Under the pieces are notes generated by a model that was not told where the DNA came from, ran no database searches, and saw only the letters and a list, made by a program, of their open reading frames with translations. A stretch of DNA of 64,000 nucleotides from Deltaproteobacteria bacterium (GTDB taxonomy: Bacteria; Desulfobacterota; Binatia; Binatales; Binataceae): assembly GCA_027317185.1 (NCBI GenBank), contig DAHVFB010000006.1, forward strand, positions 593-64,592, read 5' to 3'. Both the position numbers and the translations under genes were made by a program. How positions within the stretch are numbered: the stretch's first letter is position 1; the number at the start of each line of letters is the position of its first letter. Positions 8,712-62,266 of this stretch are shown here, piece by piece.

Positions 8712-8717
8712 GCAGCG

Positions 8718-10206: not shown

Positions 10207-10235
10207 CATAAACCGAATTTTTCTGGCGGATAATT

Positions 10236-11234: not shown

Positions 11235-11266
11235 ACCCGATTCCACTTGTTTGCGGAGGAAACAGT

Positions 11267-11776: not shown

Positions 11777-11797
11777 GGCAGACCTCACCTTGTTGTT

Positions 11798-43142: not shown

Positions 43143-43155
43143 CGGAATACGGCTG

Positions 43156-45506: not shown

Positions 45507-46778
45507 ATGAAAATATCGATGTTCCATCTGATGCCGTATCGGGACCTGCCCGATGACTTCGAACGCCGGCACCATTCGGTATGGGTCGATCCACCCTATT
45601 GGGAACTCGCCGATTCGGAAAAGATCGGCCAGTACTACAATTGGACCCTCGATGAACTTATTCATGCGGCAAAGTGCGGCATGGACGGTATCTGCGTCAA
45701 CGAACATCACCAGAATGCTTACGGGATGATGCCCAGCCCGGACCTAATGGGATCGGTATTGGCGCGCGCCACCAACGGAATGAATACAGCGGTGGTGCAG
45801 ATGGGCGCCACGCTGCCGACCACCATCCCGCCCATCCGAGTGGCTGAAGAATACGGGATGATCGACTGCATCAGCGGCGGGCGCCTGGTGGCCGGGATGC
45901 CGCTGGGCACGCCGATGGACGTGAATCTCTGCTACGGCATCTCACCCGCGGAGCATCGCGAGCGCTATTACGAGGCGCACGATCTGATCCTTAAGGCCTG
46001 GAGCGCCAAAGAGGTCTTCGCCTGGAATGGGAAGTATTTCAAGCTGCCGATGGTGAATCCGTGGCCGCGGCCAATTCAGCAGCCGCGTCCGCCGATCTGG
46101 ATTCCCGGTAGCGGCAGCCTTAGCACTTGGGACTTCGCCACCAAGCACGATCACTGTTATTGCCATCTCTCCTTTTACGGCCATCGGTCAGGCAAACAAG
46201 TGCTTGACGGTTACTGGGAGTTTGTTGCGAAAAGAGGACTGGATCCAAATCCCTACCGGGTGGGCTTTCTACAACTGATCGCGGTTTCGGAAAGCGATGC
46301 GCAGGCCGAGCGCGATTACTACAAACACATCCGCTATTTCTACGACAAATGCCTGCACGTACCCAACGAGTACATCTCATCGTCGGGCAATCAGGATTAT
46401 CCGAGCCTGGTCAACTCAGCCAAAAACATCAATCCCGAAATCGGACGCATGATCGGGGAGATGAAGAACTGGAAATTTGGCGACTTCGTCGATCGCGGTT
46501 TCGTAATTGCCGGATCGCCCGCCACCGTTCGCGACCGCTTGATGGAAGCCGTCAAAAGCCTACGCGTCGGCAATCTGATGGTGTTGCTGCATATAGGTTC
46601 AATGCCGCACGATCTTACGATCAGAAATATTGAGTTGTTCTCGCGCGAGGTGATGCCCCACTTCCGTACGGTATGGGACGGCGAGTGGGAGAATCGCTGG
46701 TGGCCGAAGAAGCTGATGGATCAAAGCCCGGCCACTCGAATCGCTGATGCTAACGGCGAGGCTCGCGCCTCCAAGTAA
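45507..46778 (+). CDS. LLM-class flavin-dependent oxidoreductase
   Basis: MKISMFHLMPYRDLPDDF...GMDGICVNEHHQNAYGMMPSP is a long-type luciferase-like monooxygenase. Confidence 0.85.
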   Translation: MKISMFHLMPYRDLPDDFERRHHSVWVDPPYWELADSEKIGQYYNWTLDELIHAAKCGMDGICVNEHHQNAYGMMPSPDLMGSVLARATNGMNTAVVQMGATLPTTIPPIRVAEEYGMIDCISGGRLVAGMPLGTPMDVNLCYGISPAEHRERYYEAHDLILKAWSAKEVFAWNGKYFKLPMVNPWPRPIQQPRPPIWIPGSGSLSTWDFATKHDHCYCHLSFYGHRSGKQVLDGYWEFVAKRGLDPNPYRVGFLQLIAVSESDAQAERDYYKHIRYFYDKCLHVPNEYISSSGNQDYPSLVNSAKNINPEIGRMIGEMKNWKFGDFVDRGFVIAGSPATVRDRLMEAVKSLRVGNLMVLLHIGSMPHDLTIRNIELFSREVMPHFRTVWDGEWENRWWPKKLMDQSPATRIADANGEARASK

Positions 46779-46796
46779 TTATCGGGACGGAATTTC

Positions 46797-47576
46797 ATGC
46801 CTCAGGAAAGAACACTCGATCTATGGCACGGCCAGATTAAGCCAACCGTCAGGATTGCGGGCAGCGGCGCGCCGCTGGTTTTCCTGCATAGCTGGTTCGG
46901 ACCGGTGTGGGAGCCGTTTCTAGATCTGCTCGCCCGCGATTTCACCGTCTACGCGCCCTCTTTGCCCGGTACCGGACCCGGCGATGTCGACGGTATCAAG
47001 GCGCTCGACGATCTCTGGGATCTGGTCCTTTATCACTACGAATTATTTGATGCGCTCGGACTGAAATCGCCCGCGGTGGTTGGGCATTCTTTCGGCGGCA
47101 TGATCGCGGCGGAGGTTGCGGCGACCGATCCGACACGCGTCGGCAAGCTCGGCTTGTTAAGCCCGTTCGGACTGTGGCGCGATGATACGCCGATACCGCT
47201 GGTTTCCGCGATGCCGCCTCAGGAAATCGTCCGGCGTGTCTTTAACTCGGTGGACCATCCGGCAACCCGCTTGATGTTCCCAAATCGTAGCGACGTTGAT
47301 GCCGTCATTCGCGTCACCTGGGCGCAGAACTGCTCGAACAAGTTTATCTGGCCGATCCCGGATAAAGGCCTCAAGAAACGGATTCACCGCATCACGGCGC
47401 CCACGCTGGTGGTATGGGGTAAAAGCGACAATCTGATTCCGCCGGTGTACGCCGAAGAATTCAAAAGCCGTATCGGCAACGCACGCATCGAACTGGTCAA
47501 TCAGGCCTCGCATATGGCGCCGTTCGAGCGCCCCCAGGCAGTGGCGGACATCCTGGTAAAGTTTCTCAAGGGCTGA
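46797..47576 (+). CDS. alpha/beta-fold hydrolase
   Basis: Nucleophile elbow VGHSFGGMIA and HG oxyanion region (LVFLHSW). The C-terminal His region is ASHMAPFE. Confidence 0.85.
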   Translation: MPQERTLDLWHGQIKPTVRIAGSGAPLVFLHSWFGPVWEPFLDLLARDFTVYAPSLPGTGPGDVDGIKALDDLWDLVLYHYELFDALGLKSPAVVGHSFGGMIAAEVAATDPTRVGKLGLLSPFGLWRDDTPIPLVSAMPPQEIVRRVFNSVDHPATRLMFPNRSDVDAVIRVTWAQNCSNKFIWPIPDKGLKKRIHRITAPTLVVWGKSDNLIPPVYAEEFKSRIGNARIELVNQASHMAPFERPQAVADILVKFLKG

Positions 47577-47610: not shown

Positions 47611-50600
47611 TCATACCGGTGCCGGATGCTGTCCCGGATTTTGCTCGGGATTTTCTTTTTGATTCTGTTCAGAATGTCCGTCGTCTTTCCTTCGCGAATA
47701 GAAAAATTCATATACCGAGGGAACTACGAACAGTGTCATGAAGGTCGAGGCGGTAAGCCCACCGATTACCGCGCGCGCTAACGGCGCCGAGGCTTTCGAT
47801 CCACTCTCAAGCGCCAGTGCTACCGGCAACAAGCCCACCACTGTAGCAAGGGCGGTCATCAGGATTGGCCTCATCCTGATTCGCGCGGCCTCGACCACCG
47901 CTTTGCGCAAAGGCTCGCCGCTGTGCCGCCGCTGATTGGCGAAATCGATAAGCAAAATCGCATTCGAGATGACTATCCCGATCATCACGATAATGCCCAT
48001 CATCGATTCGATGTTCAGCGTGGTACCCGTCAACCAAAGAATCCAAACTACACCAATCAGTCCAAGCGGCACCGAGAACAGAAAGATCAAAGGATCGAGC
48101 CACGAACGCGATTGGGCAACGCCCACAAGGTAAACCACGACCAGCGCCAATAGGAAGCCGAATTTGAAGCTGCCGAAGGCCTTTTCCATCTTTTCGACTT
48201 CGCCACGATAATAAATGTGGATGTTCTTGGGCTGTTTGATCTTGTTCAATTTGGTCTTGATAGCTTCCAGCGTGCCCCCCAAATCCTCACCTTTGGGTTG
48301 AACCAAAATATCGACCACCCGTTGAATGTTGTAATGGTCCACCTCTGACGGAAGCTCCTGGTAGTCGATATGCGAGACATCGCGCAACAGCACCGATTGC
48401 CGATGCCCCGACCCGTCGATATCCATGGATGATTCGCTTGCTCGCGACAAATAGCTCGGAGCGGCATCGCGCATTCCGACCGGAATGTTCTCGAGTGTGT
48501 CGATCGACTTGATTTTCCTTTCGAGATACTGCGCGCTTAAATAGTAATCATCGCCAGTGACCGGATCGATCCAGATTGATGGCGATATCATCTCGTTGTT
48601 CACGATCGCGGTAATCAGGTTTTTCACAATCTCTTTCTCTGTAATCCCGAGACGCGCGGCTCGCTCACGGTCGACCGATATGTTCAGCGTCGGATACTTC
48701 GAAATCTGCTTGATCATGGTCTGACGCACCTGCGGCAGGTGATTGAGGTCATTTTCGACCTGCCGCGCAAAGGAAAACATCTGCGGGAAAGGTTCGCTCA
48801 GCGGCGAACTTATCTGTACATCGATCGGCGCAATCTGACCGAAATTAAGCATCGCATCGATAATGCTTCCCGAACTGAAAAATGCCCGAACTCCCGGCAT
48901 GTCAGTATTGAAAGCGGTGGCGATGCGGTCTTCATAGTATCTGGTGGGGTGATCGCGACTGGCGCCCAGCTCCACCATCATCTCGGCGGTATCCTCGCCG
49001 GAATTCTGGGTATAAATCGCTGGTATCTGCGGGATCACGCCGATGTTCGAAACGATAGTTTTCATCGCGCGCTTCGGCACCACCTGATGGACGATGTCGT
49101 TAAGCTTCTGAACCATTTTGGTGGTCAGCTCGATACGCGTGCCCTCGGGAGTCTGGACATGAATAATGAATTTGCCGCCTTCGGTGCGGGGGAACATGCG
49201 TGTACCGATGACGTCGAACAACAGCATCGAGAGTATAAAAAGCAGGCTGACTCCCCCCAGCACGAGGAGCTTGTGATCGAGCGTAACGGTGAGAGCCTGC
49301 GCAAAACGATCGGAAACCCGCTTGTACCAGCGGTTAAAGCCAGACAATAACTTTCCGAGCCATCCCTTTTGGCGACCCTCCTCCACTTCGCGCACCCGTT
49401 CCACCGAAAGAAAACGCGCGCAGTAAATAGGGATCACCGACATCGAGACCACGTATGACGCCGCCATCGCGAAGGTCACCGCCAGCGCGAGCGCGGTGAA
49501 CATGTACTTAGTCACTCCATAAAGGAAGACCACCGGCAGAAACACCACGATCGTACTGATGGTCGAAGCGAGTACCGCATAAGTCACCTCTTCGGCCCCT
49601 TCGCGCGCCGCATCCTTGGGCGCCTGACCCTCCGCCAGATGACGATTGATGTTTTCGAGCACCACCGTCGAATCGTCCACCAGCCGTCCAATCGCGAGCG
49701 TGAATCCGCCGAGGGTCATAATATTGATGGTTTCGCCAGAAACCCGCAGACCAATAATCCCGGCCATTATCGAAAGCGGAATCGATAGAAAGATAGCGAA
49801 GGTGGATCTCAAATCGCCTAGAAAAATCAGAATCATCAACGAGGCCAGAATCGCGCCCGAACCGGCTTCATGCTCAAGCGCGGCGATCGCGTTGCGCACA
49901 GTATCTTCCTGGCTGAAGATGGTGCTCACCTTGAGGCCGTGAGGCAGACCGGTAATGCCCGGAATCGCCTTTTTAACCCCATCGATGACGCTCAGCGTGT
50001 TCGCCCCGGTCTGTTTGAAAATGGGCACGTAAACCGATGGCTTATTGTCGATCAGCACCTCGTTGTATTGGATTTGCGATGCCTTTTCGGCATGCCCGAC
50101 ATCGTGCAAAAACACTGGCGCCTGACCTTTCCCGATTCGGATTGGAACATTGTCGAGGTTTTCGGGCTTGGGAATCATCGAATTGGTATAGACGTAGTAA
50201 TCGTAAGGTCCGATCTTGGCATCGCCGCCGGGCAAAATCTGATTGGTGCTATCGATCGATTTCACTACGTCGAGCAACGTGAGCCCCCGAGCCTGCAGCG
50301 CATCGCGGTCAACGTAGGCCATGATCTGCCGGATTTTGCCGCCGAAGGGATACGGCACTGACGCACCCTTAACCGTCGCCATAAAGTTACGAACGTTGTA
50401 ACGTGCCTGATTTTGCAACTCGGTCTGCCCGTATTTTCCGGAGACCGTGACCAGAATCAGAGGGACCGACGACGAAGCGTTATACTTTAGAACTAATGGC
50501 GGCAAAGTACCGGGCGGCATCAGTCCCAGATCGCCCATCGCGAGTGTCGCCAGATCGGCTGCGGAGGCGTCTAAATTCGCATTCTCATGAAAATATACGG

Positions 50601-50868
50601 TGACGAGACTCACCCCTGGAAGTGAACGGGATTCGATATGCTCAATGCCGCTGCCGAGCGTAAAAAATCGCTCGTATCGGCTGGTGATGTCCTGCTCCAT
50701 GCCGGTCGGCGGAAATCCCGGATAGAACGTGGCTACGACCGCGGCCTTGATGTACAGGCGCGGGAACACATCGACCGGCATCTGCGTGAAAGCGACGCCG
50801 CCCATTATCGCGACCAGCAGCGCAGCAACAATTACAGTGTGAGGGTTGCGCAGGGAAAAACTTGGCAT
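47611..50868 (-). CDS. RND-family efflux transporter permease (AcrB/HAE-like)
   Basis: 1085 aa with 12-TM RND architecture and two large periplasmic loops. N-terminus: RNPHTVIVAALLVAIMGGVAFTQMPVDVFP. Confidence 0.93.
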   Translation of the reverse strand: MPSFSLRNPHTVIVAALLVAIMGGVAFTQMPVDVFPRLYIKAAVVATFYPGFPPTGMEQDITSRYERFFTLGSGIEHIESRSLPGVSLVTVYFHENANLDASAADLATLAMGDLGLMPPGTLPPLVLKYNASSSVPLILVTVSGKYGQTELQNQARYNVRNFMATVKGASVPYPFGGKIRQIMAYVDRDALQARGLTLLDVVKSIDSTNQILPGGDAKIGPYDYYVYTNSMIPKPENLDNVPIRIGKGQAPVFLHDVGHAEKASQIQYNEVLIDNKPSVYVPIFKQTGANTLSVIDGVKKAIPGITGLPHGLKVSTIFSQEDTVRNAIAALEHEAGSGAILASLMILIFLGDLRSTFAIFLSIPLSIMAGIIGLRVSGETINIMTLGGFTLAIGRLVDDSTVVLENINRHLAEGQAPKDAAREGAEEVTYAVLASTISTIVVFLPVVFLYGVTKYMFTALALAVTFAMAASYVVSMSVIPIYCARFLSVERVREVEEGRQKGWLGKLLSGFNRWYKRVSDRFAQALTVTLDHKLLVLGGVSLLFILSMLLFDVIGTRMFPRTEGGKFIIHVQTPEGTRIELTTKMVQKLNDIVHQVVPKRAMKTIVSNIGVIPQIPAIYTQNSGEDTAEMMVELGASRDHPTRYYEDRIATAFNTDMPGVRAFFSSGSIIDAMLNFGQIAPIDVQISSPLSEPFPQMFSFARQVENDLNHLPQVRQTMIKQISKYPTLNISVDRERAARLGITEKEIVKNLITAIVNNEMISPSIWIDPVTGDDYYLSAQYLERKIKSIDTLENIPVGMRDAAPSYLSRASESSMDIDGSGHRQSVLLRDVSHIDYQELPSEVDHYNIQRVVDILVQPKGEDLGGTLEAIKTKLNKIKQPKNIHIYYRGEVEKMEKAFGSFKFGFLLALVVVYLVGVAQSRSWLDPLIFLFSVPLGLIGVVWILWLTGTTLNIESMMGIIVMIGIVISNAILLIDFANQRRHSGEPLRKAVVEAARIRMRPILMTALATVVGLLPVALALESGSKASAPLARAVIGGLTASTFMTLFVVPSVYEFFYSRRKDDGHSEQNQKENPEQNPGQHPAPV

Positions 50869-51268: not shown

Positions 51269-52837
51269 TTGAGCACAGCCAGCAGCGAGACGAAAAACGG
51301 CGTCCGCCCGTTTACCGGCGAACAATATCTGGAAAGCCTGCGCGACGGCCGCGAGGTCTGGATTTACGGTGAGCGGGTTAAGGACGTGACCACCCATCCA
51401 GCGTTTCGCAACGCGGCCCGAATGATCGCGCGCCTGTACGATGCGCTGCACGACCCGCAACAGCAGTCGGCTTTGACCATCGCGACCGATACCGGCAACG
51501 GCGGCTTCACGCACCGTTTTTTCCGAGTGGACCGCAACCCAGAGGAACTGCTCAAGACCCGCGATGCGATCGCGGAGTGGGCGCGCATCACCTATGGATG
51601 GATGGGCCGGTCGCCGGATTACAAGGCGAGTTTTCTCGGCACCCTCGGCGCGAACTCAGCCTATTACAAACCATTTGAGAGTAACGCGATTGAATGGTAC
51701 CGCCGCGCCCAGGAGCAATGCCTGTTCATGAACCATGCGATCGTCAATCCGCCGATCGATCGTTCCCGCCCGCCGGACGAAGTGGCCGACGTTTACGTCC
51801 GGGTTGAAAGGGAAACCGACGCCGGCCTGATCGCGAGCGGCGCCAAGGTGGTCGCCACCGGATCGGCGCTGACGAACTACAATTTCATCGGTTACAACGG
51901 CGTGACCCCGCTCGGCCGGCCCGATATGGCGCTGTTCGCGATGATCCCGATGGACAGCCCGGGGGTGAAGCTTATCTGCCGCACATCATATGAGATGACC
52001 GCGGAGACCATGGGCAGCCCGTTCGATTACCCGCTTTCGAGCCGCTTCGATGAAAACGACGCCATATTCATTCTGGATAAGGTGCTGATCCCGTGGGAGA
52101 ACGTATTCGTCTATCGCGACCTTGAACGCGCAAACCATTTCTTTCCGAAATCGGGCTTTGTTGCGCGCTTCGCGATACAGGGATGCACGCGTCTGGCGGT
52201 CAAACTCGACTTCATAATGGGCGTGCTGCTGAAGGCGGCCGAGGCCACCGGTCAGGATACGGTCAAATCGTCGCAGGTCTCGCTCGGCGAGATCATGGCC
52301 TGGCGATCGATGTTCTGGGCGCTGAGCGACGCCATGGCGCGGGCGTGCGAACCCTGGGTCGGCGACACGGTCTTGCCTAACACAATGTACGCAAGCTGCT
52401 ACCGGGTATTGGGCGCGGTCGCATATCCGCGTATCCGCCAATTGATCGAGCAGACCTATTCGAGCGCACTCATCTACTTGAACTCGCACGCGGCCGATTT
52501 CAAAAATCCCGAGCTGCGGCCATTGCTGGATCGTTATATCCGCGGATCGGCAGGTTACGATTCGGTGGAGCGGGTGAAGATACTGAAACTGCTGTGGGAT
52601 TCGATTGGCACCGAATTCGGCTCGCGGCATGAGCTGTATGAAATGAACTACGCCGGCAATCACGATACCACGCGGTTCGAGAATCTGATGCTGTCGATCG
52701 AACTTGGCAAGGCCGCCGAAGTGAAGGGACTGGTGGAGCGCTGCCTCGCCGAATATGACCTTGATGGCTGGCGCGCGAAAGACCTGATCAACGCCACCGA
52801 CATTAATCGCATCATGACCGAGGCGAAGCGCAAGTAG
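51269..52837 (+). CDS. HpaB-family (4-hydroxyphenylacetate/phenol) flavin-dependent aromatic hydroxylase, oxygenase component
   Basis: [44 protein letters not shown] is the HpaB N-terminal signature, with a full-length body. I prefer the TTG at 51269 (GGAGGA 9 nt upstream) over the ATG at 51200. Confidence 0.88.
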
Positions 52838-52883
52838 CGGCTACGATAACATTGATACGGAGTCAAACAACGGAGCGACGCAC

Positions 52884-53786
52884 ATGATTACCGCCGTCAA
52901 GCAGCTTGGATATATCGGGCTCGGGGCCAGCAATTTGGAGGCATGGGAGCGCTATGCGGCCGAGATCCTGGGTCTTCAATTATGCGAACGCGGCTCCGAT
53001 GGAACCCTGTACTTCCGCATGGATGAGTTTCACCATCGAATTTCGGTCCATCCCGATCCCGCCGACGACTTGAAACTGCTCGGCTGGGAGGTGGCGGATC
53101 AAAGCGCGCTCGACCAGCTCGCTGCGCAGATCAAGGATTGGGGTACTGAGGTCCAGCATGGCACGCCCGCGGAGGCTGCGGAGCGCGCTGTCTATCGCCT
53201 GATCAAGTTCACGGACCCCAGCGGCATCGCATCCGAAGCGTACTATGGAGCCTTGAAGTACAACACCCCATTCAGATCGCCGCGGCCGATTTCAGGCTTC
53301 CTGACCGGAGAAGACTTCGGCATGGGTCACGTCGTGATCGCCGTCGACGACTTCGATCGAAGCGCCAGCTTTTACCAGGAAGCGCTCGGAATGAGGGTTA
53401 CCGATATCGCCACGCCCTCCGGCCAGCGCGCCGAGCGAATCGGGATCAGTTCGCACATGATCTTTTTGCATTGCAACCTGCGCCACCATTCAATTGCCTT
53501 CGGCTCGGGTAGCTATTCCAAGCGGCTTAATCACTTCCTGCTGCAGGTGCGTGACATCGACGATGTTGGCGCGACTTTCGATCTGTGCCTCGATCGCGAG
53601 GTGCCGCTGGTCTCATCGATCGGCAAGCATGCCAACGACCTGATGATCTCGTTCTACATGAAAACCCCATCGGGCTTCGGCTGCGAGTTTGGCTATGGCG
53701 GGCGCGAAGTGGACGATCGGACCTGGAAGGTGGTGATGAACCGGGTCACCAGCCTTTGGGGCCATCGAACGATCAACGCTCTGTAA
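52884..53786 (+). CDS. type I extradiol ring-cleavage dioxygenase (BphC/catechol 2,3-dioxygenase-like, two VOC modules)
   Basis: LGYIGLGASNLEAWERYAAEILGLQ; second module GMGHVVIAVDDFDRSASFYQEALGM. Size 300 aa. Confidence 0.85.
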   Translation: MITAVKQLGYIGLGASNLEAWERYAAEILGLQLCERGSDGTLYFRMDEFHHRISVHPDPADDLKLLGWEVADQSALDQLAAQIKDWGTEVQHGTPAEAAERAVYRLIKFTDPSGIASEAYYGALKYNTPFRSPRPISGFLTGEDFGMGHVVIAVDDFDRSASFYQEALGMRVTDIATPSGQRAERIGISSHMIFLHCNLRHHSIAFGSGSYSKRLNHFLLQVRDIDDVGATFDLCLDREVPLVSSIGKHANDLMISFYMKTPSGFGCEFGYGGREVDDRTWKVVMNRVTSLWGHRTINAL

Positions 53787-53851
53787 GTGCAGCGGCGCCA
53801 GATCCGATCAATCGCGCCGCGCTTGTAGGTGCGGGTTACCTGAGCGCGTAC

Positions 53852-54091
53852 CTACGCCATGGGCGGCAGCACGATCGGGTAACGCTTAACCTCTTCCGGA
53901 TTCACGTTGAAGAACGGATCGCGTTTCGCCGGCGAAATCGATTCGGGCGGCTCGCTGTCGCGCCATGAGAACGAACACTGCTGGCAATGCAGCACGCTCC
54001 AGATCACCTGGCCCGCTTCCTTGCCCTGATATTGAGTTTCGGTCCGCTCGCCGCGGCATCGCGGACACGAGTTTGAAGTTGACGTGCTCAT
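53852..54091 (-). CDS. small subunit of a non-oxidative hydroxyarylic acid decarboxylase (VdcD/BsdD-like)
   Basis: CPRC...W.V.HCQQCSFSWRDSEPPESI...P.F pattern in 79 aa. ATGA overlap with the upstream UbiD-family gene. Confidence 0.72.
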   Translation of the reverse strand: MSTSTSNSCPRCRGERTETQYQGKEAGQVIWSVLHCQQCSFSWRDSEPPESISPAKRDPFFNVNPEEVKRYPIVLPPMA

Positions 54092-55722
54092 TGCGCCCCA
54101 TTCTCCTGCATCTTGCGGATTTGCCGCATCAGACGTTCGATATGCTCACCTGTTGGCCGGTTCACCATCTTCATATCGGGACCAACCGGGTCGGGCGCCA
54201 TAAAGCTGGTCGCATCGATGATTAGATGATGGCCTTTGCCGGGCACCTCGGCCGCCGGATCGATCGGCACCATCGGCATGTTCGGCATCACCATTATGTC
54301 GCTCGCGCGGGTACGTACCGAGATTGCCCACATCACCTGGTTCAAATCGAACGGGTCGACGTCGTCATCGACCATGATCAGGTTCTTCAGATACATCATG
54401 CCGTGCGGCGTGCTGAGCGCGCGCAACGCGACCGATTTCGCAAATCCGCCGTAGCGATTCTTGAGCGAGATGATTCCGGTTAGTCCATGATGATACAGAG
54501 CGTTGACCGCCTGAATTTCGGGAAACTGATCCTTCAAGACCGAATAGATTGGAACCGAGGTTGACAGTCCGATCAACGTATCGTGTTCGGTCCATCCCTT
54601 GCCGATGTAGATACTTTCGAAGATCGGGTCGCGCCGATGCGACACCGCTGTCACCTTAAACACCGGCGCGCGCCGCACCCCGCTATAGCTGCCGGGAAAC
54701 TCTCCGAACGGACCTTCGAGGATGCGCTCGCCGGTCATCAACTCCGCTTCGATCACGATTTCGGTGCCGGCCAGGATATCCAGCCCGTTGCCGGACTGGG
54801 TCAAGGTGATCGGTTGGCCCATCATCGCGGACGCATAGGCAAACTCACTTTCGTCGTACGCGAGCGGGGTCGCCGCGAACATCGCGATCGCGGGGTGATT
54901 ACCCAGCATCACGGAGATGCGGAACGGACGATTCTCCTTCTCCGCGATTAATATCTGGCGTCCGATGTCATGCGCCGGGATGGTCATCAGCGAAAACGTG
55001 TCGGGCGCATGAATCTGCAGGCGATAGATACCGACGTTCTGCTTGTTGAAATCCTCGGGGTCGCGTGGGTCGCGGCTTACCACCGCCGCCTTGCCGAGGT
55101 AGAAACCGCCGTCGAACTCGTTGATTCGGGTCAGCGGAATAAGGTCGTAGAGGTTGATCGCTTTCTCAATGCGGACCTCGTTAACCGGGGCGTCCTCCGG
55201 TTTGATCCAGTTGAGCTCCGGCTTGGCGCCCTTCGCACCCCAGCGCCGGGTCATCTCGAAAAACAGCTCTTTAATCGTGGCGGTCTTTGGATAGCCGAGC
55301 AGGAGCGCGATATTGGCCCACGTCGCATGCACGCCGATTATCAGCTTACGGCCCGGGTACCCGCGGATATTATCGAATAGGACGGCGGGACCGCCCCGCA
55401 CGTCGTTGCTGGCCGCCACCGCGATATGGCGAATATCCGGTTCCGGCATGACCGGTTCGGTCCACCTGATGCACTGCTGGTTGTCAGTCAGCAGTTGGAT
55501 GAAATCGCGCAACGAGCCGATTTGCCGGGCTTTTTTGGCCGGCACTGCGATCGAACTGCGCTGAACCCCATTGGGTATTTTTTCCGCGCTGCCGCGGGCG
55601 GGAATTTCCTCCACCGAACAATCCTCCCAGAAACGGTCCGGCGCCTGGCCGGGCTGGTTTGGCGTCAAATCTAACCTGCTATGCGCATTGATGTCGAGCA
55701 ACGCCTGCGATCTTCCGCGCAT
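54088..55722 (-). CDS. UbiD-family (prenyl-FMN-dependent) aromatic acid decarboxylase, VdcC-like
   Basis: LRDFIQLL...GGPAVLFDNIRGYPGRKLIIGVHATW and a full UbiD body. The ORF N-terminus is about 60 aa longer than usual. A GTG at 55545 (485 aa) is a plausible true start. Confidence 0.9.
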   Translation of the reverse strand: MRGRSQALLDINAHSRLDLTPNQPGQAPDRFWEDCSVEEIPARGSAEKIPNGVQRSSIAVPAKKARQIGSLRDFIQLLTDNQQCIRWTEPVMPEPDIRHIAVAASNDVRGGPAVLFDNIRGYPGRKLIIGVHATWANIALLLGYPKTATIKELFFEMTRRWGAKGAKPELNWIKPEDAPVNEVRIEKAINLYDLIPLTRINEFDGGFYLGKAAVVSRDPRDPEDFNKQNVGIYRLQIHAPDTFSLMTIPAHDIGRQILIAEKENRPFRISVMLGNHPAIAMFAATPLAYDESEFAYASAMMGQPITLTQSGNGLDILAGTEIVIEAELMTGERILEGPFGEFPGSYSGVRRAPVFKVTAVSHRRDPIFESIYIGKGWTEHDTLIGLSTSVPIYSVLKDQFPEIQAVNALYHHGLTGIISLKNRYGGFAKSVALRALSTPHGMMYLKNLIMVDDDVDPFDLNQVMWAISVRTRASDIMVMPNMPMVPIDPAAEVPGKGHHLIIDATSFMAPDPVGPDMKMVNRPTGEHIERLMRQIRKMQENGAQ

Positions 55723-55811
55723 GGACTAATTCAGCCAGTATTAACTTTGGAATTGCCTTGACACTGCTATATTCGTCTGGTCAATTCGGATTCAAATTGC
55801 GAGGAAAGTTT

Positions 55812-57077
55812 ATGAATGAAAACCTGACCAGAATGGGCGATTATTACGCGGCGGCGCTCGACGACGTCGAACTCACGCCCAAGACTCGCGCAATTCTGGC
55901 CGGGCTTGATCCGTCGGCGCAGGATCATAAGCAGGCCATCTCGTTGCCGCCCCAATGTTACACCTCGGAAGACTGGTTCGAGTTTGAAAAGCGCGCTGTC
56001 TTCGATCGCGATTGGGTCTGCGTCGGTCATTCGGGGTTGATTCCCAAGCCCGGCGATTTCCAGACCATCAACATGAACCATGACCCGTTGATCGTTTTGC
56101 GCGATCAGGCGGGTGTGGTGAAAGTGATGGCGGGCGTATGCGCCCATCGCGGACGCTTGGTCTGCGAGGGCGCCGGCAACACCGACAAGTTTGTCTGCCC
56201 GCTTCATCACTGGACTTATGATCTGAATGGACAACTTTTGGGCGCGCCGGAGATGAACTCGGTTCTGCCGCTGGCCGAGTTGCAGAAGCAGGCTTTCCTG
56301 CCGGTGCTACGCAGCGAGGTCTGGAATGGCTTCATCTTCGTCAATATGGACGGGCGGGCCATGCCGCTCGCGCCGCGGCTCAAGCGGCTGACCAAGGAGA
56401 TTGAAAACCATCACATCGGTGAGATGCTCGGCACGCCCACCTTCGATTTTCCTGATTACAACTGGAACTGGAAGTACATGCAGGAGAATGCGATCGAGCC
56501 GTATCACACCCATTATCTCCATCGTGGCATCCACGACCACGCGCCCTCGCGGCTGGCCTCGTTCGTCGAGTGGGACCCCGACGACGATGGCGCCGTGTTC
56601 CATCCGACCGGGTTCGTCGAACTCGACGGAAACTTCAATATGAGCTTTAAGTGCCTCTTCCCGGTGATTAAGACCTTGACCGAGAAGGAGCGCCAGCGCG
56701 TGATGTTCATCACGGTGCTGCCGAATCTGTTTATCGGGACGGTGCCGGATGGCGTGTTCTACTACATCATCCAGCCCCAGAGCGCGAACAAGATCGTTCT
56801 GCGGGTGGGCTTCCTATACCCCGAGGCCACGCTCGCGGACAAAAACTTCGATTACATCTTTAAGATGACGGTCGATGGACTGTGCACCTACAACGATCAG
56901 GACGTCGCGTCAAATGCCGGGGTCCACGTGGGACTTAAATCCCGTTTCGCCCCGCGCACCCGTTATGCGCCTAAAGAAAAAACCCTGTCGCAAATGAACC
57001 GATGGCTGGTGAAGCGCTACAAAGCCTACGCCACCGAGCTTGAGTCGCGCGATCGGGCTGCGGCAGCCGGCCGTTGA
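55812..57077 (+). CDS. Rieske [2Fe-2S] aromatic ring-hydroxylating/demethylating oxygenase, alpha subunit
   Basis: Rieske motif CAHRGRLVC...CPLHHW. Mononuclear iron region NAIEPYHTHYLH. ATG 55812 is preceded by GAGGAAAG. Confidence 0.88.
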   Translation: MNENLTRMGDYYAAALDDVELTPKTRAILAGLDPSAQDHKQAISLPPQCYTSEDWFEFEKRAVFDRDWVCVGHSGLIPKPGDFQTINMNHDPLIVLRDQAGVVKVMAGVCAHRGRLVCEGAGNTDKFVCPLHHWTYDLNGQLLGAPEMNSVLPLAELQKQAFLPVLRSEVWNGFIFVNMDGRAMPLAPRLKRLTKEIENHHIGEMLGTPTFDFPDYNWNWKYMQENAIEPYHTHYLHRGIHDHAPSRLASFVEWDPDDDGAVFHPTGFVELDGNFNMSFKCLFPVIKTLTEKERQRVMFITVLPNLFIGTVPDGVFYYIIQPQSANKIVLRVGFLYPEATLADKNFDYIFKMTVDGLCTYNDQDVASNAGVHVGLKSRFAPRTRYAPKEKTLSQMNRWLVKRYKAYATELESRDRAAAAGR

Positions 57078-57121
57078 TTGGAACCGATTGCTTGGTTGAG
57101 GGAGATGGATTGAGAAAATAG

Positions 57122-57877
57122 ATGAGTTCAGAAATTCAGGAATTGAAGGAACTACTGCTCGACCTCCGGCGCGATATTGGCCGCTTGCAGGATCTCGAAT
57201 CGATCAAGTATCTCATTACCTCCTATGCGCGGGGCTGCGACCGCGGCAACGATCCGGTGATGATCGCGCCGCTGTTCGCCGAAGATGGAATTTGGGAGAG
57301 CGCCGGCTTTGGCGCCTACCATGGCCGTCGGAACGTCGCCGCGGCGCTCAAGGGGATTGCGGGCGAAAAAATCTGGTGGTCGCTCCATTACATGATCTCG
57401 CCGCAGATCGAGCTTGATCCGTCGGGCCTTGGCGGCAAGGCTTTCTGGTATTTGTGGGAATCGGCCACCATACCCGATTCAGACACCAACAAGGCCGAGT
57501 CACATTGGATCGGCGGCACCTATGATGCCGAAGTGGTAAAGCGGGACGGCAAATGGCTGTTCAGCAAGATGGTCCTCAATCTCAACCTTGCCAGTCCGTA
57601 CAATGAGGGATGGGTCAATCAACGTTTTCCCAGGGGCAATGACCATCAGCCCTATTTCCGCGAACTGGAACCGGACAGCTATTTCTGGTGCGCTTGTGGC
57701 CGCTCGAAGAATCAACCATTCTGCGACGGATCGCACAAAGGCACCAATCATCGCCCGGTCGAATTGACGATCGAGAAACGCCAGATGGTCGTGCTGTGCG
57801 GATGCAAGCGAACTGGCACCGGCCCATTTTGCGACGGCACCCATCTCAACCTGAAACTCGACAATAAAGCTGATTAA
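57122..57877 (+). CDS. fusion protein: NTF2/SnoaL-like domain + two CDGSH-type iron-sulfur domains
   Basis: The N-terminal 170 aa has a SnoaL_4-like pattern (LQDLESIKYLITSYARGCDRGN...). The C-terminus has two motifs, CACGRSKNQPFCDGSH and CGCKRTGTGPFCDGTH. Confidence 0.85.
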   Translation: MSSEIQELKELLLDLRRDIGRLQDLESIKYLITSYARGCDRGNDPVMIAPLFAEDGIWESAGFGAYHGRRNVAAALKGIAGEKIWWSLHYMISPQIELDPSGLGGKAFWYLWESATIPDSDTNKAESHWIGGTYDAEVVKRDGKWLFSKMVLNLNLASPYNEGWVNQRFPRGNDHQPYFRELEPDSYFWCACGRSKNQPFCDGSHKGTNHRPVELTIEKRQMVVLCGCKRTGTGPFCDGTHLNLKLDNKAD

Positions 57878-57916
57878 ATCAAGTATAAGCGGTCTGCCAT
57901 TTCGGAGGGCTTAAGG

Positions 57917-58519
57917 ATGATTCACAGACGGCAATTACTGGCGGCCGGCGCGGGACTGGTGGTCATGACGCCACTGAAAATCCCGCTGACGTTTATTACC
58001 GGCGCGATCGGCTCGGCGGCTGCCAGCCCAGACGTATTGGCGGAAAGCGGGCTGGCTGGCTCGCTCGAATTGATCTCGGCGGCCCGGGAAAACGCCCGCG
58101 CCGCGCGCGTGAGCGACATCGACAGCACGATTCTTATCGGCCAATTATCCAAAGCATGGGCCAGGCATCCCCGCCCGTTGTTCGGGATGACGCGCAGCGA
58201 TGTCGCGGTGCTGGTCGAGGCGCTGGCGCGCGACCATGGAATGGCAGTGGTCTACCGCGGATGGCACGACCATCGCGCAGACGGCTCGGTCCATCACGTG
58301 CTGCATGGCGATGCGAAAGCCGTCGCGATGCTGAAACGGCAATTTAATTCCACCGGCAGTTTCGGAAAAATTCTGGGCGAGCAAATAACCGTTTTGACCG
58401 CATCCGGCGGCCGTCCGGAATCGGTTAATTTCGAGGTTGCCACCGGCCGCCAGCCATCGGGCAGAGCCCGTTTCGTTTCATGGGCGGTCGCCCCTGTCGA
58501 AACGGCCACGGCCATCTGA
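57917..58519 (+). CDS. hypothetical protein with a twin-arginine (Tat) signal peptide
   Basis: MIHRRQLLAAGAGLVVMTPL... has a Tat-type RRxLL motif and an h-region. No family recognised for the mature part. Confidence 0.55.
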   Translation: MIHRRQLLAAGAGLVVMTPLKIPLTFITGAIGSAAASPDVLAESGLAGSLELISAARENARAARVSDIDSTILIGQLSKAWARHPRPLFGMTRSDVAVLVEALARDHGMAVVYRGWHDHRADGSVHHVLHGDAKAVAMLKRQFNSTGSFGKILGEQITVLTASGGRPESVNFEVATGRQPSGRARFVSWAVAPVETATAI

Positions 58520-58561
58520 AATCACGGGCCCCGTGTATCGCACGATCGGAGAACCATCTAG

Positions 58562-60136
58562 ATGAATGCCAAACTTCCCAGGGGTGTATCCAAGGAGCAG
58601 TTCGCATCGGCGATGAACGCGATGCGAAAGGTGGTCGGCAACCAATGGGTAATCGTCGACGATAACCCGTTGATCGCCGGTTACATGGATACGTATTCAG
58701 CCGCTCCCGTCAGCTCCACCGCCGCCTCCGCCGCCGTCTGCCCCGCCAGCGTCGAGGAGGTGCAACAGATCGTCAAAATCGCGCATAGCCATCGGATTCC
58801 GATCTGGTCGATTGCGACCGGAAGAAACTTCGCCTATGGCGGCCCTGCGCCGCGCAGCGCCGGCCAGGTGGTGCTCGATTTGCGCCGGATGAACCGCGTA
58901 CTCGAAGTCAACACCGAGCTCGGCTACGCGATCGTCGAGCCGGGCGTCGGCTACGTTGATTTCTACAACTACATGCAAAAACACAAGCTGCCCTACTGGA
59001 TCGATTGCGCGGCCAATGGAATGGGCGGCGTGATGGGCAATACGCTTGATCATGGCGTCGGCTACACCGCCTACGGCGACCATCTGTTGATGCAATGCGG
59101 GATGGAAGTGGTGATGTCGGATGGCTCGCTGATGCGCACGGGGATGGGCGCGCTGCCCAACAGCACCTGCTTTCCGCTCTACAAGTATGGCTATGGCCCG
59201 TACATCGACGGCCTTTTTACCCAATCGAACTTCGGCGTGGTGACGAAAATCGGCTTGTGGCTGATGCCCGAGCCGCCCGCCTTCAAACCCTTCAAGGTGC
59301 AGTTCGAAAGCGAGGACGACCTTTACCAGGCGACCGAGCTGATGCTGCCGCTCAAGATCAATATGATCATTCCGAACGCGGCCATCACCACTCATCTGCT
59401 GTGGGAAGCGAGCCTCTTCACCACCAAGCACGAATGGAGCAGCGGCCCCGGCGCGTTGCCGCAAAGCACGCTGCGCCGCATCGCGGAAAAGTTCGACATC
59501 GGAATGTGGAATTTCTATGCCGCGCTTTACGGGATGCCTGAAGTGGTCGAGGAAAACTGGAAGCTGGTCGAGGCGACCTTCCAGAAGATCAAAGGCGCGA
59601 AAATCATTCTTGGCGAAGATCGCAAAGGCGATCCGAGCTTCGATTACCGCGCCCGGCTGATGCGCGGTGAGCCGAACCTGACCGAGTTCTCGCTGTTGAA
59701 CTGGGTCGGCGGCGGTGGCCATATCAACTTCTCGCCGATTTCTCCGGCCAGCGGCGACGACGCGATGAAGCAGTTCCACATGATTCGCCAGGTCTGCGAG
59801 AAATATGGCTTCGACTATATCGGCGAATTCGTGATCGGATGGCGCGAGCAGCATCACATCCTGATGCTGATGTTCAATCGCTACGACGCCGACGAAAGTA
59901 AGCGAGCTCATGATTGTTTCGCGCAGTTGATCGACGATGCGGCCGCGCAGGGCTACGGCGAGTACCGCACCAATCTGCATTTCATGGACGCGATCGCCGA
60001 GACCTACAATGCCAACGACGGCGCACTGCTGAAGATGCATCGGCGGGTAAAACGCGCGCTCGATCCGGCCGGGATTCTGGCGCCGGGCAAGAACGGCATC
60101 TGGCCCATTGGCGAAACCCCGGAGACCGAATCATGA
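58562..60136 (+). CDS. VAO/PCMH-family FAD flavoprotein, p-cresol methylhydroxylase (PchF)-like subunit
   Basis: FAD_binding_4 domain with the IATGRNFAYGGPAPR loop, plus a VAO-type cap domain. It is followed by a c-type cytochrome with an ATGA overlap. Confidence 0.88.
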   Translation: MNAKLPRGVSKEQFASAMNAMRKVVGNQWVIVDDNPLIAGYMDTYSAAPVSSTAASAAVCPASVEEVQQIVKIAHSHRIPIWSIATGRNFAYGGPAPRSAGQVVLDLRRMNRVLEVNTELGYAIVEPGVGYVDFYNYMQKHKLPYWIDCAANGMGGVMGNTLDHGVGYTAYGDHLLMQCGMEVVMSDGSLMRTGMGALPNSTCFPLYKYGYGPYIDGLFTQSNFGVVTKIGLWLMPEPPAFKPFKVQFESEDDLYQATELMLPLKINMIIPNAAITTHLLWEASLFTTKHEWSSGPGALPQSTLRRIAEKFDIGMWNFYAALYGMPEVVEENWKLVEATFQKIKGAKIILGEDRKGDPSFDYRARLMRGEPNLTEFSLLNWVGGGGHINFSPISPASGDDAMKQFHMIRQVCEKYGFDYIGEFVIGWREQHHILMLMFNRYDADESKRAHDCFAQLIDDAAAQGYGEYRTNLHFMDAIAETYNANDGALLKMHRRVKRALDPAGILAPGKNGIWPIGETPETES

Positions 60137-60495
60137 TCGTTCGTCGAACTCTTACCGCTGCGGCGCTGATCGCGATGATGATCGTGGGAACCGCGCATGC
60201 GGGTGATATGAAAAATTCGGTCAGCCATGGCGAGCAGATCTTTAATACGCAATGCATATTTTGCCACGGCCAGGGATTGGGTCATCCGGCCTGGCAGATG
60301 CTCGCGCTGAAGAAGGGCAAGGCCAAGGCGTATATCGTCGGCCGCACGGACCTCACCCCGCTCTATATCAAACACGTGGTGCGTAACGGGCTGATTGAGA
60401 TGCCACCGTTCAGGGTCAGCCAGATTTCGAATCCGGACCTCGACGCCCTGGCGCAGTACATAACCCATCCAGACGGCGCGCAAAGCGCAAAGTGA
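60133..60495 (+). CDS. monohaem c-type cytochrome (PchC-like subunit)
   Basis: Sec signal MIVRRTLTAAALIAMMIVGTAHA|GD. Haem motif CIFCH. Distal Met candidate in IEMPPF. Size 120 aa. Confidence 0.85.
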   Translation: MIVRRTLTAAALIAMMIVGTAHAGDMKNSVSHGEQIFNTQCIFCHGQGLGHPAWQMLALKKGKAKAYIVGRTDLTPLYIKHVVRNGLIEMPPFRVSQISNPDLDALAQYITHPDGAQSAK

Positions 60496-60508
60496 TCAGG
60501 AGATAACC

Positions 60509-62047
60509 GTGGCGACTGCTTTAGCTGCAAACTCCGACTCTCGGGCTATCACGCCGGCGCTTGATCAGATACGTGCGGCGCTTGGCGATAATTCGGTCAT
60601 CGCCGATCGTGCGAGCCTGGCGAAATACGTCGATTCGGGTTCGCTCGCCGGTCCCGATGCGCCGCTTCCGGGCGCAGCCGTGATGCCCACCAGCGTGGAG
60701 CATGTCCGCGCTTTGTTGGCGATCGCGACTCAGCATCGAATCGGGCTGTGGCCGTTGGTCGGATCCGGACCATTTGCCGCTTCCGCCGATCGCGCCGGAC
60801 AGCTCGTGGTGGTCGATCCGCAGCGCATGAACCGGATCCTTGAGGTCAACGAAAAATACGCGTACGCACTGGTGGAGCCTGGCGTCACTTACGCGCAGCT
60901 CCACGATCGACTGCGCGACGGCAATCCACCGCTATGGCTCGACTGCGCCTCGCAACCGTCCAGTTCGCCAGCCAGCGATTTTGTGAATCGCTCGTTCGGC
61001 TACACGCCGTACAACGATCACGTGATCATGCAATGCGGGCTTGAGGCGGTGCTGCCCGACGGATCCCTGGTGCGCACCGGAATGGGCGCGATGCCGAAAA
61101 GCTCGTCGTGGCAACTTTTCAAGTACGGCTACGGGCCATATACCGACGGCAGCTTCACTCAATCGAGCCTCGGGATCATGACCAAAATCGGCATCTGGCT
61201 GATGCCCGCCCCGCCCGCCTGCCAGCCTTTCATGATCACCATTCCGCGCGAGGAGGACCTTCACGCCGCGATCGACATTCTGAAGCCGCTCAAGATCACG
61301 ATGCTGATTCCGAATACCGTTGTGGTGTCGCACCTGCTCGACGACGCCGCCCTGAGCGCGCCGCGGAGTAAGTACGATTCCGGCAGTGGTCCGATTTCGG
61401 CCAGTGCAGCGGCAAAGATAGCCTCCGATACCAATCGCGGAATGTGGAACATTTATGGCGCTCTGTACGGGGTGCCACCGGGTATCGCGGTGGGCTGGAA
61501 AGTTATCCAGGATGCCTTCAGTAAAATCCCGAAGGCTGGCTTTTACACCAATGAGAATCGAAAAGACGATCCGGTTTTTGCCTATCGATCGCAACTGATG
61601 TGTGGCGTACCCGCGGCGCCGCCTTCGACAACTCGGCAATGGAACGCCGGTGGGCACGCCGAAATCTCCCAGGTGATACCGTTGACCGGCGCGCATGCAG
61701 CACGCGCATTTGACCTCGCGAAAGGGATCGCGCGAGAGCATAAGTTCGATTATCCATGCTCCTTTCAGGCCACCTGGCGCAGCGCGTTTCTGGCGGGCAC
61801 TATTCCGTTCGATCCGAACTCGGCCGATGATCGCAAGCGTGCGCAGGCTTGCGCCAAATCGATCGTCGAGCGGATGGCGAAATCCGGCTATGGAACGGTC
61901 GCGGCGCCGGCGGAGATTGCGGCAGAGGCGGCCTCAACCTATAGCGCGCATAACGGCGCATTTTGGAACATGCATCGCAAGCTGAAGGCGGAGTTCGATC
62001 CCCGCGATGTGCTCGCCTCTCCGTTTCCGCTCAGCAAACAGACCTGA
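60509..62047 (+). CDS. second VAO/PCMH-family flavoprotein paralog with a divergent FAD-loop
   Basis: Collinear with 58562..60136 (RMNRILEVN, ALVEPGVTY, IGIWLMPAPP, KITMLIPN). The GRNxxYGG loop is replaced by VGSGPFAAS. GTG start. Confidence 0.8.
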   Translation: MATALAANSDSRAITPALDQIRAALGDNSVIADRASLAKYVDSGSLAGPDAPLPGAAVMPTSVEHVRALLAIATQHRIGLWPLVGSGPFAASADRAGQLVVVDPQRMNRILEVNEKYAYALVEPGVTYAQLHDRLRDGNPPLWLDCASQPSSSPASDFVNRSFGYTPYNDHVIMQCGLEAVLPDGSLVRTGMGAMPKSSSWQLFKYGYGPYTDGSFTQSSLGIMTKIGIWLMPAPPACQPFMITIPREEDLHAAIDILKPLKITMLIPNTVVVSHLLDDAALSAPRSKYDSGSGPISASAAAKIASDTNRGMWNIYGALYGVPPGIAVGWKVIQDAFSKIPKAGFYTNENRKDDPVFAYRSQLMCGVPAAPPSTTRQWNAGGHAEISQVIPLTGAHAARAFDLAKGIAREHKFDYPCSFQATWRSAFLAGTIPFDPNSADDRKRAQACAKSIVERMAKSGYGTVAAPAEIAAEAASTYSAHNGAFWNMHRKLKAEFDPRDVLASPFPLSKQT

Positions 62048-62137
62048 AGAAGGGTGGTAGCGTAAGTCGATCGGAAACACCCAAACCGGAGCTGAGCGGC
62101 CGCCCGCGATAACCACAACCCATTCAATGGAGTATCG

Positions 62138-62266
62138 ATGAACACCGAAGCCCCCAACCTCAAAACCGTAGTCGGAATGATCGTGGTCACCGTCATCCTC
62201 GCTGGAGCGTTATCCTTCTTTCTGATCGGCCATTTCGCGCCTCCCACTTACATGATCTACGGTTGA
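62138..62266 (+). CDS. candidate 42-aa single-TM mini-protein
   Basis: My own translation: MNTEAPNLKTVVGMIVVTVILAGALSFFLIGHFAPPTYMIYG. GGAG lies 5 nt upstream of the ATG. It is below the ORF-track length cutoff. Confidence 0.45.
   Translation: MNTEAPNLKTVVGMIVVTVILAGALSFFLIGHFAPPTYMIYG

Follow-up and report, generated by a model that had tools for sequence, protein, structure and literature searches.

A prFMN-dependent decarboxylase beside a flavocytochrome in the Binataceae: a possible aerobic funnel for 4-methylphenol-type substrates

Introduction

How might a bacterium in which the textbook enzymes for hydroxybenzoate were not found still dispose of a 4-methylphenol? The question is raised by a gene cluster at positions 51,269 to 62,266 of a 64,000-nucleotide stretch of DNA (here, the window; contig DAHVFB010000006.1 of assembly GCA_027317185.1, positions 593 to 64,592) from a member of the Binataceae, where genes for two flavoproteins and a cytochrome c, a UbiD-family decarboxylase (VdcCD), an HpaB-family hydroxylase, an extradiol dioxygenase and a Rieske oxygenase stand together. 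An earlier note on the window had read them as an island with an unusual combination of enzymes, carrying p-cresol or a related 4-alkylphenol through 4-hydroxybenzoate and phenol to catechol and meta-cleavage. Every gene that it named is present, open and intact where it had been placed, as seen from open reading frames (ORFs), Pfam and profile matches, and the window does lack an aldehyde dehydrogenase, a flavin reductase, a ferredoxin or reductase, lower meta-pathway genes and a regulator, as the note had said. The reading to which we lean, with a little less than even confidence, is that the cluster serves as an aerobic funnel for 4-methyl- and 4-hydroxymethyl-phenols in which the para carbon is removed before the ring is cleaved; that plain p-cresol passes by way of phenol to catechol, as one case of such a funnel, is more doubtful.

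Our picture of the funnel draws on gene content, enzyme families, catalytic residues kept or lost, synteny and partner genes present or absent, from which we infer the reactions, their localisation and their order. A periplasmic flavocytochrome composed of a catalytic flavoprotein (PchF1), a cytochrome c acceptor and a partner flavoprotein (PchF2), exported with the aid of a protein with a twin-arginine translocation (Tat) signal, would convert the para side chain to 4-hydroxybenzaldehyde, and an aldehyde dehydrogenase or molybdenum oxidoreductase encoded elsewhere would take the aldehyde to 4-hydroxybenzoate. VdcCD, with prenylated flavin mononucleotide (prFMN) from a lone UbiX encoded elsewhere, would then release the corresponding phenol, which the HpaB-type enzyme, supplied by a flavin reductase in trans, would hydroxylate at the ortho position, leaving meta-cleavage to the BphC-type enzyme of the cluster or to a XylE operon on another contig (C66). 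The ring may bear a further methyl group, in which case a xylenol would give o-cresol and then 3-methylcatechol, a course that would fit a BphC-type dioxygenase.

Cresols, xylenols and creosol arise from lignin, coal and manure, and, if the reading is true, catechol would be reached without PobA or protocatechuate cleavage, which would change how genomes lacking those markers are read and would be of interest to lignin funnelling. The genus has many other aromatic clusters, and every enzyme family represented at this locus is already known.

A widespread module with local additions

The window is contig C216 of a metagenome-assembled genome (G000) of 4.1 Mb and 93% completeness, which was studied together with those of four congeners (G001-G004); the five genomes are 88-96% complete. 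The cluster comprises three transcription units, on the plus, minus and plus strands. The first, hpaB-bphC, converges with the second, vdcCD, and the third encodes, in order, the Rieske oxygenase alpha subunit, a SnoaL-CDGSH fusion protein, the Tat-signal protein, PchF1, the cytochrome c and PchF2; a scan for promoters and terminators returned sites no commoner than in shuffled sequence. The term island did not survive, since a recent genomic island is ruled out by typical composition (GC 0.57-0.60 against 0.596 for the genome, with GC at third codon positions, GC3, inside the genome range), by the lack of a tRNA gene and by synteny in close kin, the gene order being kept in all four congeners (complete in G001 and G004, split between contigs in G002 and G003). 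Across these congeners identity is 81-86% for the large enzymes. The congeners also carry insertions: a second UbiD gene ahead of the Tat-signal gene, and genes for PhyH, an EthD-like protein and a 2-oxoglutarate (2OG) dioxygenase after pchF2. The vdcC clade did not turn up outside this genus among about 200 members of the class Binatia searched, a distribution in keeping with an old acquisition; the cluster is a genus-level one, perhaps acquired long ago.

Nor does the combination deserve to be called unusual. A search of genome contigs for relatives of PchF1 yielded 78 loci from outside the Binatia, mostly from sphingomonads and gammaproteobacteria (many are close kin, and the counts are not independent), and these carried vdcC in 53, an aldehyde dehydrogenase gene in 55, ubiX in 52, a cytochrome c gene in 70 and two flavoprotein genes in 61 cases; likewise, of the 18 long non-Binatia loci that VdcC retrieved from metagenomes, 15 held a PchF-type gene. 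The pairing of a flavocytochrome with a decarboxylase of the NadC clade is a widespread known module, and it is found also on plasmid pNL1, which is described as mediating p-cresol catabolism (PMC3946609). The order on pNL1 is ubiX, a hypothetical gene, an FAD protein, aldehyde dehydrogenase, nadC, nadD, an FAD protein and cytochrome c, and a similar pch-nad module is carried by Paraburkholderia pBN2 (L096 19797-25446), where it lies beside a RuBisCO/cbb operon. On both plasmids the order flavoprotein, aldehyde dehydrogenase, nadC, nadD spells the proposed chemistry. The local variation in the Binataceae is that hpaB-bphC, of which hpaB occurred in none of the 78 loci, is attached, that the aldehyde dehydrogenase and UbiX genes are lost from the cluster, and that the Rieske and SnoaL-CDGSH pair is inserted.

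The flavocytochrome

PchF1 (58562..60136, plus strand) is a catalytic-type 4-phenol-oxidising flavoprotein of the family of vanillyl alcohol oxidase (VAO) and p-cresol methylhydroxylase (PCMH), with Marinicaulis VAD (8S7x) as its best PDB match, followed by PCMH (1WVE), and it is 54% identical to SARO_RS17180 of pNL1. It keeps the phenolate pocket (Y92, Y468 and R469) together with E375, E422 and H432. At the site of the histidyl-FAD of VAO and VAD it has H387, and L379 stands where PCMH has Tyr384. The two sites at the flavin N5 are A151 and N152, and the Asp/Glu and Leu pair of the 4-phenol oxidases (VAO/EUGO/EPO) is absent. A small residue at the first of these sites is dehydrogenase-like, and the P151N mutant of VAD stays a dehydrogenase (PMC7617285, Table 1 and mutants), so that the Ala/Asn pair, being of the dehydrogenase type, fits the adjoining cytochrome c. 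To judge from these residues, PchF1 is of the dehydrogenase type and, because of the His387 flavin link and the Leu that replaces Tyr384, not a PCMH in the strict sense. Of the two flavoproteins of the cluster, PchF1 alone keeps the catalytic residues.

The second copy, PchF2 (60509..62047, plus strand), follows a gene for a PchC-like monohaem cytochrome c with a Sec-type leader (60133..60495, plus strand), which was recognised by Pfam and weakly matches the PCMH cytochrome 1DII_C. Alignments show that PchF2 has lost the phenolate Tyr/Tyr/Arg and the catalytic Glu/His. It is 64-67% conserved among the congeners, and one intact and one degenerate flavoprotein copy occur in 73 of 101 loci; by comparison with the two-flavoprotein PCMH of Geobacter, it is probably a non-catalytic subunit. 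Upstream of pchF1, in a PchX-like position, lies the Tat-signal gene (57917..58519, plus strand). A hidden Markov model built from 39 non-Binatia upstream proteins matches its product alone in the genome (E 7e-15), and a twin-Arg motif occurs in 57 of 63 ORFs upstream of pchF, a pattern consistent with the protein being the export partner of the flavoprotein; the signal motifs would place the flavocytochrome in the periplasm. About 14 kb before this gene the window has tatC-like and tatA/B-like genes (42354-43446, minus strand; assigned by inspecting the translation), which are syntenic in G004. A third VAO/PCMH-family paralogue (G000:C181:1289-2800, L105), beside a gene for a protein like glutathione S-transferase, is about 85% conserved in the genus and lies within 5 kb of pchF2 in G001 and G004; it is without the phenolate Tyr-Arg and both flavin-linking residues.

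The decarboxylase

VdcC (54088..55614, minus strand, with the longest ORF reaching 55722) is a prFMN-dependent hydroxyarylic acid decarboxylase of the UbiD family that passes NF041204 at 656.6 bits against a cut-off of 650. It is 69% identical to NadC of pNL1 and 42-46% identical to the BsdC/VdcC proteins of Bacillus, Streptomyces and enterobacteria, and it falls within a NadC clade that is separate from these with a support of 100. The pocket motifs of this clade (TIPAHD, WTEHDTL and YHHG) differ from those of the classical BsdC/VdcC enzymes, while the catalytic EGPFGEF motif is kept. The small activator subunit VdcD (53852..54091, minus strand) was found as an ORF 44% identical to NadD of pNL1, with CxxC at 9 and 36. 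VdcBCD systems convert 4-hydroxybenzoate to phenol and vanillate to guaiacol (PMC13527026). NadCD converts protocatechuate to catechol with prFMN, more slowly than AroY, and protocatechuate is the one substrate on which an assay is reported (PMC10807440); NadCD and VdcC belong to the VdcC/BsdC family and not to AroY.

A UbiD enzyme might also work in the other direction, as a carboxylase in an anaerobic route from phenol or cresol to 4-hydroxybenzoyl-CoA, an explanation that the earlier note had itself set against its own and that has something to commend it: PCMH-type chemistry needs no O2, the UbiD family is reversible, and a PCMH with two flavoproteins is known from Geobacter. It is very improbable, however, as VdcC scored 126 bits against the phenylphosphate carboxylase models TIGR02723/TIGR02724 (cut-off 469), neither a phenylphosphate carboxylase beta subunit nor 4-hydroxybenzoyl-CoA reductase was found over cut-off in the five genomes, the neighbouring enzymes are O2-dependent, and carboxylation would duplicate the product of the flavocytochrome branch.

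The hydroxylase and the ring-cleavage dioxygenase

The HpaB-family protein (51269..52837, plus strand; 522 aa from a TTG start; Pfam HpaB_N/HpaB) is assigned as the oxygenase component of a group D, FADH2-dependent phenol ortho-hydroxylase. It keeps the catalytic Arg/Tyr/His of the group (GRSPDY and NHA motifs), scores 732 bits with TIGR02310, under the cut-off of 885, and is 55-59% identical to HpaB and PheA types (55% to Klebsiella HpaB, 57-58% to Rhodococcus PheA-type proteins). Its loop reads YN, matching neither the HY of PheA/NphA/AphA nor the loop of 4-hydroxyphenylacetate (4-HPA) hydroxylases, so the substrate cannot be read from sequence; in addition, Met replaces Arg in the YERNY motif. 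In a tree with weak deep branches, and with AphA outside it, the protein belongs to a Binatia-rich clade of its own, apart from two PheA-type proteins of Rhodococcus plasmids. Elsewhere in the genome there are a second bphC-hpaB pair (G000:C205:70125-72712, L099), 35% and 66% identical to the genes of the window and without pch or vdc, and, on C184, yet another close hpaB, the third in all, next to a gene for an FAD monooxygenase.

Following hpaB is a gene for a type I extradiol dioxygenase of the BphC/HsaC branch (52884..53786, plus strand), with PDB matches to 2WL3 (presumably AkbC of Rhodococcus), BphC (1HAN) and HsaC (2ZI8). The Fe ligands H149, H217 and E268 and the catalytic H202, H249 and Y258 are present; the best match is TIGR03213, at 325 bits below its cut-off of 366, and the enzyme is not of the XylE type (TIGR03211, 91 bits against a cut-off of 320). 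As BphC prefers 3-substituted catechol (PMC9062432), a BphC-type enzyme at this place hints, by analogy, at a ring that is still substituted. A more remote relative (L118) has kept vdcCD and bphC-hpaB face to face, the place of the pch block being taken by urease genes; of the signs that decarboxylase and hydroxylase may act together, this conserved linkage is the strongest.

Partner and competing functions elsewhere in the genomes

A search of the rest of the genome for the functions absent from the window recovered most of them. A single UbiX is encoded on C167 and three flavin reductases elsewhere, XylE was found over cut-off on C66, in an operon with genes like those for hydroxymuconic semialdehyde dehydrogenase, tautomerase and 4-oxalocrotonate decarboxylase, and hydratase, aldolase and acetaldehyde dehydrogenase genes lie on C1; the genome also has BoxB. 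No orthologue of the module aldehyde dehydrogenase was found: the best matches in the five genomes are 38-41% identical, against 54-83% in other carriers. General aldehyde dehydrogenases (36-41%) and many molybdenum oxidoreductases are present, and either could serve the aldehyde step. The same contig C66 has, at 8655-12810 (G000; L097), what looks on inspection like a hydroquinone ring-cleavage set of two dioxygenase subunits, a semialdehyde dehydrogenase and a maleylacetate reductase-like protein.

The departure from the textbook protocatechuate route survived the same searches, in which positive controls worked: neither PobA nor LigA was found over cut-off in any of the five genomes, and no PcaGH was found, the sole intradiol enzyme being no PcaG/H pair and falling below the catechol 1,2-dioxygenase cut-offs, so that in this genus hydroxybenzoate is left without its textbook exit. 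LigB-fold genes are present. Among 25 proteobacterial carriers of the module, PobA was found in six and not found in 19, a scarcity that favours decarboxylation as the exit of the module. With regard to phenol, a soluble diiron monooxygenase operon is present at G000:C172:465-4360, and as none was found in the four congeners, flavin enzymes are left for phenols there. Six of the 25 carriers, all gammaproteobacteria or similar, have diiron monooxygenases and three have HpaB-like genes; most of the sphingomonad carriers gave neither.

These findings bear on whether hydroxylation might come first, with 4-hydroxybenzoate going to protocatechuate, or p-cresol through 4-methylcatechol to protocatechuate, and VdcCD then giving catechol with no free phenol. 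Such an order, which we think unlikely, would use the one activity reported for the 69%-identical NadCD and would make decarboxylation the only way out of protocatechuate in a genus where no ring-cleavage enzyme for it was found; it would also suit the sphingomonads without a recognisable phenol hydroxylase and an HpaB-type pocket (YN loop, Met for Arg) that departs from PheA/AphA. That loop is, however, unlike those of the 4-HPA hydroxylases as well, NadCD is slower than AroY on protocatechuate and not of the AroY family, and we infer that a periplasmic flavocytochrome would reach an alkylphenol before a cytoplasmic hydroxylase could.

The Rieske and SnoaL-CDGSH pair

The third unit begins with a Rieske oxygenase alpha subunit of an uncharacterised clade (55812..57077, plus strand), assigned by Pfam and with a best PDB match of E ~1e-27 that runs mostly across the Rieske domain; its Rieske and mononuclear Fe motifs are intact, and no gene for a beta subunit, ferredoxin or reductase adjoins it. 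The next gene (57122..57877, plus strand; Pfam SnoaL_4, with more than 100 full-length homologues) fuses a SnoaL/NTF2 domain to two CDGSH iron-sulfur motifs. The domain is of the LdpA/BaiE/LinA lyase type, with invariant Y35, D40 and H89, and its PDB profile matches are LdpA (distant, at E ~1e-10), BaiE and LinA; as these are cofactor-free lyases and no beta subunit is among them, the protein was rejected as a Rieske beta subunit. A complex prediction for the two proteins scored zero and gave no answer, and it was counted neither way.

The two genes are neighbours in five of six distant contexts, and what surrounds them varies: a molybdenum oxidoreductase with PhyH, TauD with an amidase, nucleoside genes, or a PchF. 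The pair adjoins a PchF in L079 and L111. In L109 and L110 uptake genes (DUF1302/DUF1329/MMPL) come first, then the pair, and after it genes for a fused Fe-S/molybdenum oxidoreductase, an FAD subunit and PhyH. In two non-Binatia loci (L123 5882-13158 and L135) a SnoaL-CDGSH gene heads a pchF-pchC-vdcC-vdcD-pchF2 operon without an aldehyde dehydrogenase gene, joined in L123 by the Rieske gene. The idea that the pair stands in for the aldehyde dehydrogenase is only a lead, because clusters without that gene also exist without the pair (L138 and L139).

Contexts as varied as these could mean that the locus is a mosaic of independent modules, two or three in number (hpaB-bphC acting on an alkylphenol, after the manner of the Aph pathway of Rhodococcus; pch-vdc; Rieske-SnoaL/CDGSH), which lie side by side in a genome full of aromatic genes and have no pathway in common. 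The three transcription units, the absence of hpaB from the 78 module loci, the second hpaB-bphC pair on C205 and the genes inserted in the congeners all agree with a mosaic, which we nonetheless hold to be improbable: the vdcCD-bphC-hpaB linkage survives amid other flanks in L118, and the Rieske pair, or its SnoaL part, lies within the pch-vdc operon of unrelated organisms and stands beside a PchF in two further loci.

The substrate could also be of the guaiacyl type, creosol or vanillyl alcohol, which would be turned into vanillin, vanillate and guaiacol and then into 3-methoxycatechol by the HpaB-type enzyme or into catechol by Rieske O-demethylation. Vanillyl alcohol and eugenol are the preferred substrates of VAD, the closest flavoprotein of solved structure (PMC7617285), VdcBCD systems decarboxylate vanillate, BphC-type enzymes accept 3-substituted catechols, and the SnoaL domain resembles LdpA, a lignin-dimer lyase. 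We consider this substrate quite improbable, given that PchF1 keeps the PCMH-type E375 and E422 and is without the Asp of VAD, that the Rieske protein has no close match to a known O-demethylase, and that the LdpA match is a distant one.

Weighing the proposed route

What became of the route from cresol through phenol and catechol to meta-cleavage can now be said: its logic survived the genome tests, and its named substrates and the order of its steps were not established. Several observations weigh against the funnel. The reported activity of NadCD is confined to protocatechuate, VAD does not act on p-cresol (at the site of its Asp, however, PchF1 carries a PCMH-like Ala), and no orthologue of the module aldehyde dehydrogenase was found in the five genomes. 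Phenol is not obviously the product of the module in sphingomonads that show no phenol hydroxylase, and the scheme assigns no step to the Rieske and SnoaL-CDGSH pair. Moreover, the genome is so rich in aromatic paralogues (about 40 Rieske alpha subunits, about 12 UbiD, six BphC-like proteins and three close HpaB paralogues) that neighbours need not share a pathway; it also has more than 20 luciferase-like genes. The His flavin link of PchF1 and the BphC-type rather than XylE-type dioxygenase count, in particular, against the exact p-cresol form.

A bolder proposal, and in our estimation an unlikely one, is that the pNL1-type module represents a route, not described before, for the aerobic para-demethylation of methylphenols, in which a His-linked flavocytochrome dehydrogenase with an obligatory pseudo-enzyme subunit is followed by prFMN-dependent decarboxylation, and that the Binataceae have in the same locus the flavin hydroxylase and the extradiol dioxygenase that complete it, the step of the aldehyde dehydrogenase being taken over by the Rieske and SnoaL-CDGSH pair. 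We found no paper that joins p-cresol, a hydroxybenzoate decarboxylase, a phenol hydroxylase and meta-cleavage.

Neighbouring genes

After pchF2 comes a single-helix membrane ORF of 42 codons (62138..62266, plus strand), which lies near the cluster in congeners too (tblastn E 3e-7 in G001 and 0.008 in G004). On the other side, a luciferase-like monooxygenase and an alpha/beta hydrolase (45507-47576, plus strand) form a pair that is kept in the congeners and repeated at several loci of the genome. The hydrolase (46797-47576) was considered as a meta-cleavage hydrolase and was not counted as one, since it lies outside the BphD-like matches at E 1e-15 and pairs with the luciferase-like gene as at those other loci. 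Between it and hpaB stands an AcrB-family gene of the resistance-nodulation-division type (47611-50868, minus strand), with GC3 in the lowest tenth of the genome. The gene is missing at the same place in G004, where the luciferase-like gene, the hydrolase and hpaB are adjacent, and G001 has other inserts there; its low GC3 and its absence from that position in G004 make it probably a later insertion.

Comparison with known systems

The PchACXF system of Pseudomonas putida NCIMB 9866/9869 resembles the one described here in having a flavoprotein, a cytochrome c and a small upstream protein, and in the phenolate pocket, both glutamates and a small residue at the N5 acid site. In the Binataceae there is, in contrast, no Tyr384 flavin link, a second, degenerate flavoprotein is present, and a decarboxylase is next door; the cresol route of P. 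putida continues to protocatechuate. The PCMH of Geobacter metallireducens (PcmI, PcmJ) shares the two flavoprotein paralogues and the cytochrome, and it is reportedly an asymmetric complex with one FAD (Johannes et al. 2008). PcmI is reported to be essential and to carry the flavin-linking Tyr. That system is anaerobic, Tyr-linked and tied to a membrane complex. The best structural relative is the VAD of Marinicaulis flavus (8S7N series; PMC7617285), a histidyl-FAD dehydrogenase whose P151N variant matches N152 of PchF1; it differs in having Asp150 where PchF1 has Ala, in other residues of the side-chain pocket and in its inactivity on p-cresol.

As for the later steps, the alkylphenol pathway of Rhodococcus (AphAB, AphC; PMC6710988) and PheA1A2 are alike in that they too couple a flavin hydroxylase of group D to an extradiol dioxygenase; they differ in that here no reductase gene lies alongside and a YN loop replaces HY, and AphC is only ~15% identical to BphC, whereas the dioxygenase of the window is of the BphC type. 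The VdcBCD/BsdBCD systems of Streptomyces, Bacillus and enterobacteria, with that of Sedimentibacter (7AE4), share the C and D subunits, the EGPFGEF motif and a match to NF041204 over its cut-off, and differ in clade, in pocket motifs and in that the B subunit is here supplied in trans.

The best plasmid match is the pNL1 cluster of Novosphingobium aromaticivorans DSM 12444 (SARO_RS17170-17205; nadB, nadC and nadD are Saro_3873, 3877 and 3878, the tags being matched by gene order). It has a homologue of the upstream protein, a His-linked F1 (54%), NadC (69%), NadD (44%), a degenerate F2 (38%) and a cytochrome c (34%). Here, by contrast, the cluster lacks ubiX and the aldehyde dehydrogenase gene, vdcCD forms a separate unit in inverted orientation, the flavocytochrome unit starts with the Rieske and SnoaL-CDGSH genes, hpaB-bphC is an addition, and Asn takes the place of Pro at the N5 site. 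The work found on the pNL1 cluster concerns NadBCD, with NadCD already used for muconate production, and none was found on its flavocytochrome neighbours or on Saro_3875/3876/3879. Since N. aromaticivorans DSM 12444 is cultured, genetically tractable and carries the orthologous module, the core of the claim is testable there.

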